From the NCBI GenBank assembly GCA_018400815.1, contig JAGYLS010000047.1, forward strand, positions 1-13,368: 13,368 nt of DNA, given 5' to 3'. This document shows positions 3,034 to 13,368 of this stretch, in pieces. The notes under the pieces are model-generated. The model was not told where the DNA came from. It searched no databases and saw only the letters and a program-made list of their open reading frames with translations. How positions within the stretch are numbered: the stretch's first letter is position 1; the number at the start of each line of letters is the position of its first letter. Made by a program: the position numbers and the translations under genes. The stretch is from Candidatus Oleincola secundus. Lineage in GTDB: Bacteria > Atribacterota > Phoenicimicrobiia > Phoenicimicrobiales > Stramentimicrobiaceae.

Positions 3034-3561
3034 ATGAAGATATCATCACATAAAATTACCAATATGGGTTTTCTGATAGCCTTAAGTATTATACTTACCC
3101 GTATTGCCAGTTTAAGAATTGCTATTGGAGGAGTAGAAGGTATTAGAATAGGTCTAGGAAAATTTCCCGTTGTTTTAGGAGGTATCCTTTTCGGTCCATT
3201 AGCTGGAGGTTTAATTGGGGGATTTTCCGACTTATTAGGATACATCATCAATCCTATTGGGGCATATATGCCACATTTTACCTTAACCTCTGCTTTAATC
3301 GGGATTATCCCAGTCGTTGTTCTGCGATTATTAAAAAGGACAGAAGAAATCAAAACGATAGAATTGGGATTTTCAATTGCTATTGGTCATATCATAACTT
3401 CTTTAATAATGATTCCTTATTTCCTGCATACTATCTTTGGTATTCCATGGGTTGTTCTTATGCCTGCAAGAATGATTGCAGCGCCATTCAATATATTAAT
3501 CTATACATATATAATAAAAATATTACTTAAAAGGAATAATTTTATGGCTCATATTCAGTAA
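3034..3561 (+). CDS. folT: Folate ECF transporter S-component
   Basis: 175 aa, hydrophobic. Motifs IALSIILTR, IRIG.G..P..LGGILFGP..G...G..SDLLG....P.GAY.P.FTLTSAL.G.IP. THF riboswitch upstream. Confidence 0.9.
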   Translation: MKISSHKITNMGFLIALSIILTRIASLRIAIGGVEGIRIGLGKFPVVLGGILFGPLAGGLIGGFSDLLGYIINPIGAYMPHFTLTSALIGIIPVVVLRLLKRTEEIKTIELGFSIAIGHIITSLIMIPYFLHTIFGIPWVVLMPARMIAAPFNILIYTYIIKILLKRNNFMAHIQ

Positions 3562-4649: not shown

Positions 4650-4690
4650 CTAGAAAGATAGTAAAAAAATACAAAATATCTTAAAGTTTC

Positions 4691-4719
4691 TTGACATTGA
4701 CTGCCTAGATTGATAGCAT
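4691..4719 (+). promoter_or_regulatory. Sigma70-type promoter driving the ykkC riboswitch leader
   Basis: TTGACA (4691-4696), 17-bp spacer, TAGCAT (4714-4719), with an extended -10 TG at 4711-4712. The predicted TSS near 4726 is just upstream of the aptamer. Confidence 0.75.
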
Positions 4720-4739
4720 TTTAAATAATTTGTATCAAA

Positions 4740-4865
4740 ATGGGAGTATACCTAGGGTTCCGTTCTGGGAAATAGAAGCTGGACCAAGCGGTATAAGATC
4801 TATTTGTTTAATATAAGCCAAATAGATTACACTTTTGGGATAAAAACCCGGAGGATAGGTTCCAT
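4740..4865 (+). ncRNA. ykkC/yxkD-class riboswitch, subtype-2-like (ppGpp/PRPP-type architecture with P0 helix); ligand not assignable from sequence alone
   Basis: P0 AUGGGA (4740-4745)/UUCCAU (4860-4865). P1 UAUACC (4747-4752)/GGUAUA (4790-4795). Conserved CUAGGGUUCCG and GGACCAAGCG. P2 AUCUAUUUG/CAAAUAGAU. ACAC junction. P3 GGG-AUAAAAA-CCC, then GGAGGAUAGG. Confidence 0.9.
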
Positions 4866-4889
4866 AACTATTATCCTCCCGGGTTTTTT
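4842..4889 (+). terminator. Intrinsic terminator overlapping the 3' end of the ykkC aptamer (ligand-ON logic)
   Basis: AAAAACCCGGAGGATA (4842-4857) pairs with TATCCTCCCGGGTTTTT (4872-4888) with one bulged C, and the U-run continues to 4889. It is mutually exclusive with aptamer P3/P0. Confidence 0.88.
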
Positions 4890-5157
4890 ATATTTAATAT
4901 TTAATTGAAATATCTAAATTATATCAGGCTAGATTAAAAGACAAAATTTTCTGATTACATTGCAATGCTTCCTTTGAAGGGGGGAGAGAAAAATGTAGAA
5001 TAAACAAATACATTTATCATTTATATAGCAATATCAATATAAAGGCCACAAGTAAGGGAATTAAAGTAAAATTAAAAAAATTATCTTTTGGATTCATTAT
5101 TCATTATTTAAGGTTTAAGGTTAAAAGAAAGACTTTATAAATATAAGGAGTATAAAG

Positions 5158-6465
5158 ATGAGTAAAAATAATTTATTACCTGTTTCCGTCTTGATATTAA
5201 TATCAGGAGCTATGTTTTCTTCCCATTTTGGCGTAGGAGATCTTATTTTTCCACCAATTTTAGGAAGAGGTGCTGGAACAAGTTGGTTTATTGCTGCTTT
5301 AGGTTACATGATAGTTAATAGTGTTGGTGTTTGGTTAGCATACTTAGCCTGTGCTCATCAAAATAAGTCATTAGCTGGAATTGCAACTAATATATTAGGA
5401 GATGTTTTCGGAAAAATATATACTGCTATTCCAATATTGATTACTGTTTTCTTTATTCTACCCCGAGTTTCTTCAGCTACTCACGAAATGGCTGTTATGC
5501 CTTTGTTGCCTGGTATTCCCTTGTGGCTAACTTTAGCGGTATTTTTCTTGCTCTGTTATTACGTAGCATTCACCAGGGCTACAGTCATGGATAAATTAGG
5601 GAAATTGCTTGCCCCGGTCTTAATATTATTTGTGGTTATTTTAGTAATAAAAGGGATAGCTACCCCACTTGCTGCTCCAGAAGCACCGGAATCAACAAAT
5701 ATTTTAAGCACTGGGATGTTGGAAGCTTATAATACGATGAATGCGATAGCGGCACTCTTATTCGGTGGATGGGTTTTACATGAATTAAGTATGCGTAATA
5801 TAAAAACAAAAGAAGACCAAAGTGTTAATTTAAATGTTATCGGATTGTCTGCGGCTGTGCTTCTGGGCATTACCTCCACTGCTCTGGTTTATTTAGGAGC
5901 TTCTTCAGGTTCATTTTATCCTGAAGCTCCAATAGGGGTTCTTTCTACCAACATTTCTCTAGGTCTGTTAGGACAAGTTGGATTAGTAAGTTTTGCTATT
6001 ATAATGGCTTTTAGTTGCTTAACAACTGCAGCTGCAATTATTTCAATGGCTGGAGATATGTTCCTTGAGATGACTAATGGTAAACTCAGTTATAGGTTTA
6101 CAGTTACTTTAGCTACAATTGCGGGATTCACTTTAGGCCTGGTGGGATTAAGTAGAATAATAAACTATACTGTTCCCTGGTTAGTTTTGTTATATCCTTC
6201 AATAGTTGTGATAATTTTAAGTGGCTTATATTATAAATTTGAAAAAATCAGAAAAGCAGTTGTAGTTGGAGTGATTACGGCACTATTTTTTGGTCTAGGA
6301 GATATGCTTGCTTTTTATGGCCTTACAGGCAATTTTATTACACAATTGGCTTCTAAACTACCGCTTGGAGGCCAGGGAGTAGGTTGGATTTTACCTACGA
6401 TAATTATCATGGTCATAGCTCAAATAATTTTTAAACCGAAAGTTGAAGAAGGGAAAACTTCTTAG
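5158..6465 (+). CDS. BrnQ/LIVCS-family amino acid:cation symporter (divergent paralog)
   Basis: 435 aa, about 12 TM segments. Motifs FG.G.LIFPP.LG..AG, ILPR, D.LGK.L.P.L, Y.TM.A.AA..FG, LVYLGASS, CLTTA, GL..II...VP.L.LLYP, LPL...G.GWILP. RBS AAGGAG. Confidence 0.88.
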   Translation: MSKNNLLPVSVLILISGAMFSSHFGVGDLIFPPILGRGAGTSWFIAALGYMIVNSVGVWLAYLACAHQNKSLAGIATNILGDVFGKIYTAIPILITVFFILPRVSSATHEMAVMPLLPGIPLWLTLAVFFLLCYYVAFTRATVMDKLGKLLAPVLILFVVILVIKGIATPLAAPEAPESTNILSTGMLEAYNTMNAIAALLFGGWVLHELSMRNIKTKEDQSVNLNVIGLSAAVLLGITSTALVYLGASSGSFYPEAPIGVLSTNISLGLLGQVGLVSFAIIMAFSCLTTAAAIISMAGDMFLEMTNGKLSYRFTVTLATIAGFTLGLVGLSRIINYTVPWLVLLYPSIVVIILSGLYYKFEKIRKAVVVGVITALFFGLGDMLAFYGLTGNFITQLASKLPLGGQGVGWILPTIIIMVIAQIIFKPKVEEGKTS

Positions 6466-6487: not shown

Positions 6488-7627
6488 ATGAAAAAAAATA
6501 TTGAAGAATTTGTTAGCAAAAAGATAGATAAAGGATTGTATCCCGGGTGTCAGGTATTAATTGGCCAACACGGAGATATAACATTAAATCTGTCTGTTGG
6601 TTCTATGTTAAAGGATTCTAGCAACCCTATAGACAGAGTAAATGAAAATACACTGTTTAACATAGAATCAATTACTAAGGTAATGGTGACCCTTCCCCTG
6701 GTATTCAAATTAGTTGAACAGGGGAAGGTGCATCTTGATGATAAGATAGTAAGCTATATTCCGGAGTTTGGAACTAACCGGGAAAAAGAGAAAATTACCA
6801 TAAGAAATCTCTTGAATTTTACCGGGGGAATTTCTTTGGATGACCCTGTAGGTTGTGAGGAAGCTGCGTCAAAGGGAGATTTAGAAAAAGCATGGGCTTT
6901 GCATTACAATCAAGAATTAGCTTATCAACCGGGGACTAAAGTTTTTTACAGTGATGTTTCCTGCCGGATTTTGGGAAAATTAATGGAGCGGGTTATGGGG
7001 CAGTCTTTGTCTTTGGCAGCCAAAGAATGGATTTTTGACCCACTGGGCATGAAAAATACTATGTTTACCCCTCAGGAGAAAGAAAATTGTGCAGCTACTG
7101 GAGAATCAGACAATGGCCGCTTATTAAGAGGGGAACTTACCCAGGATTTAGAACATTATTTAGGTGAAGTTCTGGGGTCTGATGGACTTTTTTCTACTGC
7201 TGAAGATATGTTTCTTTTTTCCCAAATGATTTTGAATAAAGGCGCTTATAATGGTAAAAAAATCTTAGGTGAAATTACTGTAAATAAAATGACTGAAGGG
7301 ATTACTAATTCTAGTTTATACGAATCTCCCACTTCCTATCTTCACTATATTTTAAGTGGTCCCAAGACCTGGTTCTGGGAATATGCTTTTTCTAATTACT
7401 CGTTTTTTGGAGATTTAGTTTCCAAGAAAGCTATTGGAAAAATGGGGGGAGCAGGAACTTTTCTTTTCATTGATCCTGAATATGACCTTATTATTGTTTA
7501 TCTTACTAATTATGGACAACCTGAGCGTACTTTAGAAGGAGAAGAAGGTTGGAATAAATTCTTAAAAGAGATTGATGTAATGGGTTTATGTAATATTGTT
7601 TTAGGGGATATGATAAAATCAGCTTAA
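6488..7627 (+). CDS. Beta-lactamase-related (class C/EstB-like) serine hydrolase, no signal peptide
   Basis: S61-I-T-K64 (SxxK), LDD....YIPEF, ITIRNLL..T.G, PG....YSD, IFDPLGMKNT.F, GLFSTAEDM..F.QMILN.G, GKMGGAGT..FIDPE.DL.IV.LTN. Starts 22 bp after the transporter, RBS AGGAG. Confidence 0.9.
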   Translation: MKKNIEEFVSKKIDKGLYPGCQVLIGQHGDITLNLSVGSMLKDSSNPIDRVNENTLFNIESITKVMVTLPLVFKLVEQGKVHLDDKIVSYIPEFGTNREKEKITIRNLLNFTGGISLDDPVGCEEAASKGDLEKAWALHYNQELAYQPGTKVFYSDVSCRILGKLMERVMGQSLSLAAKEWIFDPLGMKNTMFTPQEKENCAATGESDNGRLLRGELTQDLEHYLGEVLGSDGLFSTAEDMFLFSQMILNKGAYNGKKILGEITVNKMTEGITNSSLYESPTSYLHYILSGPKTWFWEYAFSNYSFFGDLVSKKAIGKMGGAGTFLFIDPEYDLIIVYLTNYGQPERTLEGEEGWNKFLKEIDVMGLCNIVLGDMIKSA

Positions 7628-9854: not shown

Positions 9855-11138
9855 ATGAAACAGATAAGTAGGCCACCATTCATTATATGTCCACGTTGTG
9901 GTGAAAAGAGTTTTGGGATTAGTGAGATATTACCTGGTTATTATCTGAGAAAATGCAATAAATGTTTTTATCCGGATTCCCAGCGTAATGAGCCGGAAGT
10001 TAATTATATATTGCCTAATCTTTCTAAAAGGATTATCTATATTGATCAATTTGCTCTCAGCTATATGGTAAGAGCACTTCATCCTAATATGAAAGCTACG
10101 GGAAACAATGATGCAGATAACTTCTGGCTACGCTTATACCAAAAGCTTGATAGACTTGTCAAAATGCAGATTATTATTTGTCCCCAATCCAGTTTTCATC
10201 TTCAGGAGTCAGTAGTCTCTAATTTTTTTGAACCTCTGGAAAGAATGTACCATTTATTATCAAGAGGTTCAAAATTTGTCGATCAGTATCGGATAAAAAG
10301 GGTTCAAGTTGAGAATTCTGTTAGAAATTGGATTCGTGGTTTATCAAAAAAACCAACAATTAATTCTTTGGAAACAGTTGTTGACAGAAATATCAATATC
10401 TGGCTCCCCCGGGAGGTCAAATTATATCTCTCTCAATATCCACAAACCTATGAAGAAGAATTAAGAAAATCAAGAGAAAGAATTCATCAACAATGGCTCA
10501 AGGAATTTTATATCTGGAAAAAGTATTCGGATGCTAAATTTGAACAATGGGTAGAGGATTTTTATTTATCTTTAGTAAAAGAGATTTTGCATGCTTATCC
10601 TGATTGCCTAAGACATATTATTAAGTTTCCCGCACAGCAAATTCATGAGATTAGGCTTTGTCAATTTTTGTTTGAATCAATGGATCCTATACAGTTAATA
10701 CATTCAATACTCCAGGAAGAAGGAATAGCCTATAATGATTTATGGATGAATAGCTGGCAGTATCTTCAGTCCGAATCCTTCAGACAGATACCTTTTATAA
10801 AATTATATGCTCTTTTTTATGCCTATTTTGCTCGAAAGGCTGGTTCTGGACAGAAGAAGCCTCCTGATCGTGGTATGACTAATGATTTAAATATCCTCTC
10901 TTTGTTATTACCTTATTGTGATGCCATGTTTGTTGATAATCAATGTCGTGCCTGTCTGGAAGAAAAGGATGTACAGGATAATATTAATTTTTCTCCCCGG
11001 GTTTTTTCTCTGACTAGCAAAGAAGATTTTTTAGCATATTTGGAACAGTTAGAAGCAAATTTTCCATCAAAATATCGAAAAAAAGTAGAAGAGTTATACG
11101 GGATAGAATGGATAAACACACCCACCCGGCTTTATTAG
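9855..11138 (+). CDS. Hypothetical protein with N-terminal Zn ribbon and PIN-like motifs
   Basis: 427-aa ORF. C12-PR-C15 and C34-NK-C37; IIYID64QFAL; S.FH.QES; C-terminal DRGMTNDLNIL..LLPYCDAMFVDN. The RBS is weak. Confidence 0.65.
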   Translation: MKQISRPPFIICPRCGEKSFGISEILPGYYLRKCNKCFYPDSQRNEPEVNYILPNLSKRIIYIDQFALSYMVRALHPNMKATGNNDADNFWLRLYQKLDRLVKMQIIICPQSSFHLQESVVSNFFEPLERMYHLLSRGSKFVDQYRIKRVQVENSVRNWIRGLSKKPTINSLETVVDRNINIWLPREVKLYLSQYPQTYEEELRKSRERIHQQWLKEFYIWKKYSDAKFEQWVEDFYLSLVKEILHAYPDCLRHIIKFPAQQIHEIRLCQFLFESMDPIQLIHSILQEEGIAYNDLWMNSWQYLQSESFRQIPFIKLYALFYAYFARKAGSGQKKPPDRGMTNDLNILSLLLPYCDAMFVDNQCRACLEEKDVQDNINFSPRVFSLTSKEDFLAYLEQLEANFPSKYRKKVEELYGIEWINTPTRLY

Positions 11139-11927: not shown

Positions 11928-11959
11928 ATAATTAAATTGTATAAAAGAAAAAATAAGGA

Positions 11960-12045
11960 GTTACTGGGGGAGCTACGTGCTGAGAGAAAGCATTTTGCTT
12001 TGACCCCTTAACCTGACCTAGGTAATTCTAGCGGAGGGAAGTAAC
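11960..12045 (+). ncRNA. TPP riboswitch (THI element)
   Basis: P1 GUUACU/AGUAAC; GGGG...GCUGAGA; hairpin AAAGC/GCUUU; GACCC; ACCUGA; CUAG-GUAAUU-CUAG; CGGAGGGA. Flanked by thiN and thiamine transport genes. Confidence 0.95.
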
Positions 12046-12067
12046 CGTAAAATAAACGGTAAGACCT

Positions 12068-12105
12068 AATGCCATTGCCTTTGTTCAGGTAATGGCATTT
12101 TTTTT
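12068..12105 (+). terminator. Intrinsic terminator, expression platform of the TPP riboswitch
   Basis: AATGCCATTGCCT (12068-12080) pairs with AGGTAATGGCATT (12087-12099). The U-run extends to 12105, immediately before the RBS GGAGG (12106-12110). Confidence 0.9.
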
Positions 12106-12115
12106 GGAGGTAAAA

Positions 12116-12406
12116 ATGGCAAAAATTACACTCGGTTTACAGGTATTACCCTATGTTCCGGAGGAAAAACTATATCGTGTTGTTGATCAGGTAATTGCTT
12201 ACATTGATTCTTGTGGAATCAAATATGAAGTTGGTCCCATGGAAACAACCATGGAAGGGGAGTTGGATGATTTGCTGGTTATTGTAAAAAAGGCTCAGGA
12301 AATTTGTATTGAACAGGGAGCATCCCGGGTGGTTTCCCTGGTAAAGATAGATTACAAAAAGACAGGTGTTACTATTGATGAGAAAGTGGGAAAGTATAAG
12401 AGATAA
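12116..12406 (+). CDS. Thiamine-binding protein (MTH1187/DUF77 family)
   Basis: MAKITLGLQVLP..., VD.VI..I..CG.KYEVGPMETT.EG..D.L, GA.RV...VKIDY, TI.EKV.KY. The start is placed at ATG 12116, after the RBS GGAGG. The ATG at 12092 lies inside the terminator stem. Confidence 0.92.
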   Translation: MAKITLGLQVLPYVPEEKLYRVVDQVIAYIDSCGIKYEVGPMETTMEGELDDLLVIVKKAQEICIEQGASRVVSLVKIDYKKTGVTIDEKVGKYKR

Positions 12407-13142
12407 AGCTATCCCGGTATTGTTTATTATCCTGGTTATTCTAATATGGCAATTGATTGTAGATTCAGGCATAATTGCCCGTTATATCCTACCGTCACCC
12501 TGGGATGTGATAACGGTATGCATTGCTATTCTCCCGGAGATAACAGTGCATATCTATACTACCTTACAAGAGGCATTAACCGGTTTGTTAATTGCCATTA
12601 CTTTATCAGTTTTGCTGGCTATTTTAATGGATAATTTTACTGTTGTTAAAAAAGCATTACAGCCTTTACTGGTCGTTTCCCAAACCATTCCCATTATGGT
12701 GCTGGCTCCCCTATTTGTTATGTGGTTCGGGTTTGGAATGCTTCCAAAGGTCATGGTGGTTATCCTGGTTTGTTTTTTTCCTATTGTAGTGAGTCTTTTA
12801 GAAGGGTTGGGCTCACTTGATAAAGATTTATTAAACTTAATGAAATCGATGAAAGCAAATCGCTGGCAAATTTTTTATCTGGCTAAATTCCCGGCTTCTT
12901 TGGGAAGTTTTTTTTCAGGGCTGAAAATTGCAGCGACCTATAGTATTATCGGGGCGGTTATCGGTGAATGGATGGGTGGTAAAGCAGGATTAGGTGTTTA
13001 CATGACTCGAGTGAGGCAATCTTTTGCACTTGATAAAGTATTTGCTTCTATCTTGGTCATCATTATTTTAAGTATGCTTTTGTTTAAATTAATTGAATTA
13101 ATTCAGTTACTAGCAATGCCCTGGAAAAGGGCTATAAAATAA
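12378..13142 (+). CDS. ABC transporter permease, SsuC/TauC/ThiX type (thiamine/HMP precursor uptake)
   Basis: YILPSP, QTIP..LAPLF..WFGFG..PKV..V.L.CFFPI, EAA-like loop, FFSGLKIA.TYS.IGAVIGEW.G...GLG. ATG 12378 with RBS AGGTG (12364-12368); overlaps the upstream gene by 29 nt. Confidence 0.92.
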   Translation: MRKWESIRDKAIPVLFIILVILIWQLIVDSGIIARYILPSPWDVITVCIAILPEITVHIYTTLQEALTGLLIAITLSVLLAILMDNFTVVKKALQPLLVVSQTIPIMVLAPLFVMWFGFGMLPKVMVVILVCFFPIVVSLLEGLGSLDKDLLNLMKSMKANRWQIFYLAKFPASLGSFFSGLKIAATYSIIGAVIGEWMGGKAGLGVYMTRVRQSFALDKVFASILVIIILSMLLFKLIELIQLLAMPWKRAIK

Positions 13143-13164
13143 ATTAACAGGGAGGTGAGCAGTT

Positions 13165-13368
13165 ATGCTTTACGTATCAAAAAAATATGCTTTACTTATT
13201 TTGCTAACATTTCTGGTATTGCTTCTTTTTTGTACCCCAATTTATTCTATGGAAGAACAGTCTTTACAGGAAATTACCGTATTACTGGATTGGGTTCCTA
13301 ATACTAACCATACCGGATTGTATGTTGCAATTGAAAAGGGATTTTATAAGCAAGAAGATTTAGAGGTC
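13165..13368 (+). CDS. ABC substrate-binding protein, NMT1/THI5 (ThiY-like), 3'-truncated by window edge
   Basis: Not in the ORF track. RBS GGAGGTG, then [68 protein letters not shown]: a signal peptide followed by the [17 protein letters not shown] family motif. Confidence 0.92.

Follow-up and report, generated by a model that had tools for sequence, protein, structure and literature searches.

A probable (p)ppGpp-sensing ykkC subtype 2a riboswitch upstream of a BrnQ-family transporter gene in Candidatus Oleincola secundus (Atribacterota)

Introduction

The described RNAs closest to the leader considered here belong to the ykkC class. A pyrimidine at position 49 marks subtype 2 of this class, where the guanidine-I riboswitches (subtype 1) have an A (PMC6031431). 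Subtype 2 includes the PRPP riboswitches (2b) and the ppGpp riboswitches (2a), and position 96 "is not always present" in the ppGpp aptamers (Knappenberger 2018, PMC6031431). The offset between the ligand-pairing C of the ACAC junction and the linker amounts to 26 in the PRPP aptamer of Thermoanaerobacter mathranii (C75 to A101, from the numbering only; PMC6031431), and to 25 in the crystallised ppGpp aptamer of Sulfobacillus acidophilus (C70 to C95; PMC9881157) and in a Clostridiales ppGpp riboswitch (C69 to A94; PMC10687018).

Among the 105 subtype 2a candidates tabulated in PMC9881157 (Table S1), at least 13 have the short length that corresponds to a missing position 96, as counted by eye (C3, C7, C27, C32, C42, C46, C51, C89, C94, C101, C103, C104, and C105). 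Five of the six RNAs of this length assayed there bind (p)ppGpp, namely C3, C27, C42, C94, and C101, the first three of which are part of both binder models of that study; C105 binds neither ligand. C101 binds pppGpp with a Kd of 119 nM, and C94 binds both ppGpp (about 400 nM) and pppGpp with a preference for the latter (PMC9881157). In the same table, a U-rich P3 occurs only in C94, C101, and C103, where it is combined with a linker different from the one described below. The Cba ppGpp riboswitch of PMC10687018 would be identical to C101, as judged from the organism name and the residue numbering.

Results

Architecture of the leader

The leader is located upstream of a gene for a BrnQ-family transporter in the window, i.e. 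the whole stretch of 13,368 nucleotides of DNA that was analysed (Table 1). RF00442 is the only Rfam family matching its aptamer (positions 4741-4856; 51.6 bits, E 5.7e-07), at a score that does not reach the gathering score of 63 bits. Unconstrained folding of positions 4738-4868 yields a four-way junction of -37.9 kcal/mol (z -3.39), and none of 200 shuffled sequences folded as well. The fold and the alignments thus bear out the proposal of the first-pass annotation that the leader contains a ykkC subtype-2 aptamer with P0 and without an equivalent of G96. A4745 and G4746 are the equivalents of the pocket residues A5 and G6 (G6 being listed as unpaired among the subtype 2a features).

Table 1. 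Positions of the leader elements and of the adjacent genes in the window.
Feature	Position	Strand	Basis
Sigma-70-type promoter: -35 at 4691-4696, 17-nt spacer, extended -10 at 4714-4719	4691..4719	+	10/12 consensus matches
ykkC subtype 2a-type aptamer, four-way junction P0-P1-P2-P3	4740..4865	+	RF00442, 51.6 bits; unconstrained fold
P0, 5' strand (4740-4745 pairs with 4860-4865), ending in A4745 and G4746	4740..4746	+	Fold, covariation
P1, 49 nt, with G4788 and C4789 (G48 and C49 equivalents)	4747..4795	+	Fold
P2 hairpin, length variable among relatives	4797..4828	+	Fold, alignment
ACAC junction; C4830 is the C75 equivalent	4829..4832	+	Invariant in 30/30 aligned rows
P3, unbroken 8-bp helix (4832-4839 with 4847-4854), 7-nt A-rich loop, no bulged G96 equivalent	4832..4854	+	Pairing in relatives
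P3-P0 linker AUAGG, 5 nt	4855..4859	+	Fits (A)NARG consensus
Intrinsic terminator, shares bases with P3 and P0; C bulge within 4878-4880; U-tract 4884-4889	4842..4889	+	-22.7 kcal/mol, z -3.97
BrnQ/LIVCS-family amino-acid transporter, 435 aa, first gene under the switch	5158..6465	+	Pfam PF05525, E 3e-72
Beta-lactamase-fold serine hydrolase, 379 aa, 22 nt after the transporter gene	6488..7627	+	PF00144; NCBIfam matches all below cut-off

Sequence changes among relatives agree with these helices. Both sides have changed in four of the six P0 pairs, with 97.8% of the cells paired, and four of six pairs covary in P1a (23 sequences in each case). All eight pairs of P3 are formed in 27 of 28 short-form relatives and seven in the remaining one, and the register is clearly defined: 99.3% of the cells pair across 17 distinct P3 sequences, compared to 62.5% and 72.1% after sliding one strand by one column. 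Both sides have changed in only two of the eight P3 pairs, so the support for this helix consists mostly of compatible (G-U/A-U) changes. For P0, P1a, and P3 together, both-side changes affect 10 of 20 pairs, and the covariation score was reached by none of 500 shuffles (23 full aptamers), counts which come from related genomes and overstate independence. The sequence of the linker agrees with the consensus of known (p)ppGpp binders, and AUAGG itself is also present in the binders C17, C57, and C65 (PMC9881157). Because there are only two G in the core, P3 is unbroken, which would leave C4830 available for pairing with the guanine of (p)ppGpp, in analogy to the role of its equivalent in described aptamers (PMC6031431, PMC6003355).

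The two-G core in relatives and metagenomes

Read directly, the ACAC junction is followed by TTTT (4833-4836), GGG (4837-4839), a 7-nt loop (4840-4846) ending in AAAAA, CCC (4847-4849), GG (4850-4851), and A4852, so that the GG in place of GGG after CCC reported in the first-pass annotation is indeed present. The first-pass annotation had considered a homopolymer sequencing error, and the site does consist of a short G run that was compared in assembled contigs rather than raw reads, but a true GGG obscured by a sequencing or assembly error is hardly conceivable in view of the recurrence of the same core. Orthologous leaders with two G are present upstream of the same gene in a genome of the same genus (G001, L003) and in another one of the same family (G006, L002), such leaders being among the checks that the first-pass annotation had proposed, and the exact 27-nt core was found in 10 metagenome contigs, some of which are nearly identical to one another. 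Four sequencing runs were compared, all as assembled contigs. Run X1 is identical to the window, of which it may be the source, and was left out of the count. The contigs of run X3, from another study, span positions 4650-4888 with one substitution and without gaps, and those of run X5, also from another study, span the site with gaps only at 4672 and 4767; a further X5 record (record 8) contains 13 gaps, none of which is at the G run among the 10 listed. The contigs of run X6 stop at 4848 and resume at 4859 and thus do not bridge the G run. Shares in RNA runs were small (0.06-0.15).

The short length is also the state of the whole lineage. A pattern describing the U-rich sub-type at this length gave 40 matches in 28 of 86 genomes of the phylum and none when reversed as a control, and the pattern extended by one base did not match in any of the 86 genomes; these genomes are related and incomplete, so that the counts indicate a lineage state rather than independent events.

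Assignment to subtype 2a

The leader shows each of the seven features that PMC9881157 lists for (p)ppGpp binders. The ACAC junction with its ligand-pairing C is intact, position 96 is absent, and there is an offset of 25 between this C and the first base of the linker. The first-pass annotation had suggested that the loss of a G could be an indel route to ppGpp sensing or create a new ykkC specificity, and had named a two-G form already common in subtype 2a as the finding that would speak against it. This is what the published candidates show: the form lacking this G, found in at least 13 of the 105 listed and in proven (p)ppGpp binders among them, is a published and common form of subtype 2a and not a novel specificity (PMC6031431, PMC9881157). 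The best fit among the four options raised originally is a ppGpp sensor upstream of a BrnQ-family gene.

The leader failed the tests for guanidine-I riboswitches, since C4789 is not an A, a 6-bp P0 is present, and the score stays below the gathering score of RF00442; it also failed those for PRPP riboswitches, with neither a conserved G96 nor a downstream purine gene. Another ykkC subclass, binding XMP/GMP, was reportedly described by Barth et al. in 2025 and is said to keep the G96 equivalent and to precede GMP synthesis genes; neither a G96 equivalent nor a GMP synthesis gene is present here. Judged by genes alone, following the definitions in PMC7266159, the 29 proteins scanned behind short-form motifs include no NUDIX/HAD hydrolase as expected for subtype 2c ((d)ADP/(d)CDP) and no EamA/TauE protein as expected for the orphan subtype 2d.

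The most similar published RNAs are the natA aptamers C94 (Clostridium sp. BL8) and C101 (oral taxon 876), which have the same P3 length and register and share 20 of 26 gapless positions with the leader from ACAC to the end of P3, as compared by eye (PMC9881157). They also share the U-rich 5' strand, the unbroken helix, the 7-nt A-rich loop, a 5-nt linker, P0, and an overlapping terminator, but differ in having the linker ACGAG and a P1 of 43 nt instead of AUAGG and 49 nt, in preceding natA instead of a BrnQ-family gene, and in coming from Bacillota instead of Atribacterota. The S. acidophilus ppGpp aptamer (6DMC; C3/C7) has the same pocket residues, the same offset of 25, and a short P3 without a base at position 96, but differs in its GC-rich CGUG-type P3 strand, a 4-nt linker, and another downstream gene (PMC9881157). 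The PRPP riboswitch of T. mathranii shares P0, the pyrimidine at position 49, ACAC, and a similar linker with the leader, which is unlike it in being one base shorter, in lacking a G96 equivalent, and in not preceding a purine gene (PMC6031431, PMC5912903). Finally, the guanidine-I aptamers have the overall scaffold in common with the leader, which differs by the C at position 49, by P0, and by four instead of three bases between ACAC and upper P3. The combination of a U-rich P3 with an AUAGG linker occurs in none of the 105 candidates listed in PMC9881157, and no string matching the leader is present in the accessible supplementary text of PMC5912903 and PMC10687018; the sub-lineage may already be represented in alignments of the PNAS and eLife supplements.

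Terminator and alternative folds

The terminator values in Table 1 refer to the fold of positions 4838-4892, which none of 200 shuffled sequences equalled; a scan for consensus terminators did not list this element. The 3' arm (4872-4883) contains the CCC at 4878-4880 and is followed by six T. Reading and folding confirm that three C are present in the arm, one of which remains bulged, as previously noted. The further observation that the arm exactly complements a version with three G applies to this strain, but not to the 12 other copies with an identical 27-nt core, in which position 4878 is T in nine and absent in three, and never C. As judged from this alignment, the third C occurs only in this strain. 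Of 28 family members, 4 have one additional base in the lower part of the 3' terminator arm, which the brnQ leader of another family (L009) lacks. In the simplest history suggested by these sequences, one clade would have gained a base in the terminator arm, which would then have changed from T to C in this strain. The resulting bulge, as a local insertion in the 3' arm, may tune the strength of the terminator; a one-base bulge is also present in the Cba terminator (PMC10687018). The AAAAA at the loop end is matched by the terminator arm, as had been proposed, since the alignment shows that the partner C is lost there: most relatives have a G at the loop end and the matching C in the arm. Loops ending in five A are also known from the binders C9 and C25 (PMC9881157).

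These observations bear on the proposal of a PRPP-like scaffold that has recently lost its G. The linker and P0 region do resemble those of long-form motifs from Thermoanaerobacter-like genomes, and a three-G version would be fully complementary to the terminator arm of this strain, but the apparent memory of a third G in the terminator is the strain-private T-to-C change just described, and with C at position 4878 in none of the 12 other exact-core copies, the terminator argument for a G loss fails. In addition, the whole sub-lineage is short with a bulge-free P3, the form with one more base is absent from the 86 genomes, G96 is more than 97% conserved in subtype 2b and contacts PRPP (PMC6031431), and no purine gene follows any of the 29 short-form motifs scanned. 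A PRPP riboswitch, whether still sensing PRPP or with a recent loss of G96, is thus highly improbable.

Positions 4847-4865 are used either by P3 and P0 or by the terminator stem, so that the two folds exclude each other. For the full leader, the OFF fold is predicted at -47.5 and the ON fold at -39.9 kcal/mol, the OFF fold being more stable by 7.6 kcal/mol in a model that does not include ligand and tertiary contacts. This difference, together with a P3 rich in G-U pairs (three of the five lower pairs; -8.7 kcal/mol for P3 alone), would be compatible with a decayed or nearly always-off switch whose aptamer is too weak to beat the terminator, as would the lack of such a motif in the 353-750 nt upstream of the orthologous brnQ-like genes of G007, G030, G038, and G039 (the ortholog of G025 was left out because its upstream DNA is too short). 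However, 13 sequences share an identical 27-nt core although their P1, P2, and spacer regions have diverged, the promoter is conserved, and compensatory changes are found in P0, P1a, and P3; because of this covariation, the decayed switch considered in the first-pass annotation appears very unlikely.

Promoter and downstream genes

Promoter matches of the observed quality occur at chance level throughout the window (60 found, compared to 54.6 +/- 8.5 expected), so that the support for the promoter of the leader lies in its conservation: the -10 element is present in all 13 exact-core copies and the -35 element is visible in 10 of them, being outside of the available sequence in the other three. 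The BrnQ-family gene starts 270 nt past the terminator. An Rfam scan of the spacer (4860-5200) gave a single chance match (E 1.5), and relatives do not share a conserved spacer sequence. The transporter scores 205.8 bits with TIGR00796, below the cut-off of 243.4, which leaves its substrate uncertain. The serine hydrolase gene also follows the brnQ-like gene in five of six other loci checked and is probably co-transcribed with it; co-transcription of the following proC and aminotransferase genes as well is a guess from their spacing. Four orthologs of the brnQ-like gene (G030, G039, G038, and G025; L005-L008) share a different upstream element consisting of a T-run and an A-run, which may represent a promoter or operator.

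Other parts of the window contain further regulatory RNAs and genes. A THF riboswitch (RF01831, 65.6 bits, above the cut-off) at 2864-2960 precedes the gene for an ECF S-component (3034-3561), probably of a folate transporter, and a TPP riboswitch (RF00059, 63.5 bits, above the cut-off) at 11956-12056 is followed by three ORFs (12092-13368) which by eye resemble genes for an ABC transporter and a small thiamine-binding protein. An MmgE/PrpD-family gene, with the genes for both aconitase X subunits (PF04412, PF01989) after it, is located at 2-2836, and a 427-aa ORF with an N-terminal CxxC...CxxC motif and without a Pfam match at 9855-11138.

Gene context of related motifs

A scan of the genome collection admitting both lengths gave at least 120 matches with a pattern that excludes the CGUG-type of subtype 2a, and thus does not provide frequencies. 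Among the matches listed, at least 44 are short, at least 30 are long with a G at position 96, and at least 46 are of the guanidine type. The genes behind 18 of the long motifs were scanned, and 17 of them have a role in the uptake, salvage, or synthesis of purines, coding for 13 xanthine/uracil permeases, a PurK-like protein, a phosphoribosyltransferase, and two proteins with a PurL linker domain; the remaining gene codes for an NMT1/THI5-like protein. None of the 29 proteins scanned behind short-form motifs, which were chosen for distinct N-termini and include at least two duplicate pairs, is purine-related. The 24 genes behind motifs of the U-rich type code for LivK-like binding proteins (6), Glu/Leu/Phe/Val dehydrogenases (5), BrnQ-like transporters (4), GAF-ANTAR proteins (3), and one each of a DctP protein, a class III aminotransferase, an SNF transporter, M19 and M20 peptidases, and a glutamate synthase-type amidotransferase; in other phyla, the five short motifs of a different type precede four acetolactate synthase-like genes and one gene without a match. 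The leader thus shows the gene association of subtype 2a, with a PF05525 transporter downstream and sister copies before LivK-like and glutamate synthase genes, which are classic 2a partners (PMC6003355). The published tables of PMC9881157 contain no brnQ, and glutamate dehydrogenase, class III aminotransferase, GAF-ANTAR, and DctP partners do not appear in the published 2a gene lists.

Of 41 related genomes, 36 contain matches to RF00442 (87 in total), from which 73 distinct motifs were parsed, 44 of the CGUG-type and 29 of the U-rich short type. Position 49 is U in 42 of the 44 CGUG-type motifs and C in all 29 of the U-rich type. The two types also differ in the genes that they precede: CGUG-type motifs are found before genes of branched-chain synthesis (ilvB/ilvD/leuA-like in 9 of 10 scanned, compared to 0 of 24 behind the U-rich type), and U-rich motifs before genes of amino-acid uptake, glutamate and nitrogen metabolism, and GAF-ANTAR proteins. 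The genome containing the leader carries one of each type, the other copy being a CGUG-type motif (G000:C130:9632-9753, L228) before an acetolactate synthase-like gene.

This coexistence of two sub-types partitioned by gene set could mean that the unbroken U-rich P3 type senses another guanine-nucleotide-like ligand, or is strongly selective for pppGpp or pGpp, and responds to a signal different from that of the ilv-linked copy, which would agree with the preference of the closest published P3s, those of C94 and C101, for pppGpp (PMC9881157). Yet every known pocket residue matches subtype 2a, LivK-like and glutamate synthase partners are classic for it, and the partition may be due to descent alone; moreover, the pppGpp preference has been tied to a short P1 and a different linker, while P1 comprises 49 nt here and the linker is that of RNAs binding both ligands (PMC9881157). 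Overall, a ligand of this kind appears quite unlikely.

A RelA/SpoT domain is encoded in 40 of the 41 related genomes, and the Rel protein of this genome (718 aa) has the full HD-synthetase-TGS-ACT organization, which rules out that the ligand differs because the lineage is devoid of Rel.

Discussion

The leader is regarded with good confidence, as far as sequence comparison allows, as an intact ykkC riboswitch of subtype 2a that senses (p)ppGpp and acts as an ON switch by transcription antitermination. Points against this reading are the non-binding C105, the lack of published candidates combining a U-rich P3 with AUAGG, the three lower G-U pairs of P3, the greater predicted stability of the OFF fold, the four orthologous genes without the motif, and the partner genes outside of the published lists. 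In the proposed mechanism, the terminator would form in the absence of the ligand, and transcription would stop near position 4889. Upon amino-acid starvation, Rel would synthesize (p)ppGpp, whose guanine would pair with C4830 in the absence of G96, as in the aptamers described in PMC6003355 and PMC10687018. The bound ligand would then stabilize the P0/P3 stack and keep the 3' strands of both helices (4847-4865), which double as 5' arm of the terminator, from forming the latter, allowing RNA polymerase to read through into the gene for the BrnQ-family transporter, probably together with that for the serine hydrolase and possibly with proC and the aminotransferase gene. Most likely, the switch would thus turn on an amino-acid transporter operon in starvation, which would make sense as amino-acid scavenging under the stringent response.

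The import of the finding in itself is small, as the deletion form has already been published. It would add a BrnQ-family transporter and the phylum Atribacterota to the contexts of (p)ppGpp riboswitches: searches of the available literature found no paper joining Atribacter and riboswitch and, going by titles and abstract openings, no description of a ppGpp riboswitch before brnQ. The split between CGUG-type and U-rich motifs may reflect simple descent or different alarmone preferences. That the two 2a lineages in one genome differ in their ligand (pppGpp, pGpp, or another guanine nucleotide) and divide the stringent response into two regulons is rather unlikely. The question whether the P3 architecture sets the preference for ppGpp or pppGpp has been raised before (PMC9881157), and the leader and the CGUG-type copy on C130 form a natural pair within one genome for testing it.

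Several other arrangements were observed among the motifs collected. Many copies of the short type (L045, L094, L212, and similar ones) precede the gene for a GAF-ANTAR protein of 232-236 aa, i.e. a riboswitch is placed over an RNA-binding antiterminator. Other phyla such as Armatimonadota contain a distinct ykkC type whose short P3 includes a G-G mismatch, as seen by eye (L036, L061, L081, L086, L100, L107, and L109), with acetolactate synthase-like products for four of the five downstream genes scanned. Finally, the long-form motifs L040 and L106 carry a G at position 49 and a U after G96, and L040 precedes a gene for a xanthine/uracil permease; these two may represent a variant of subtype 2b.
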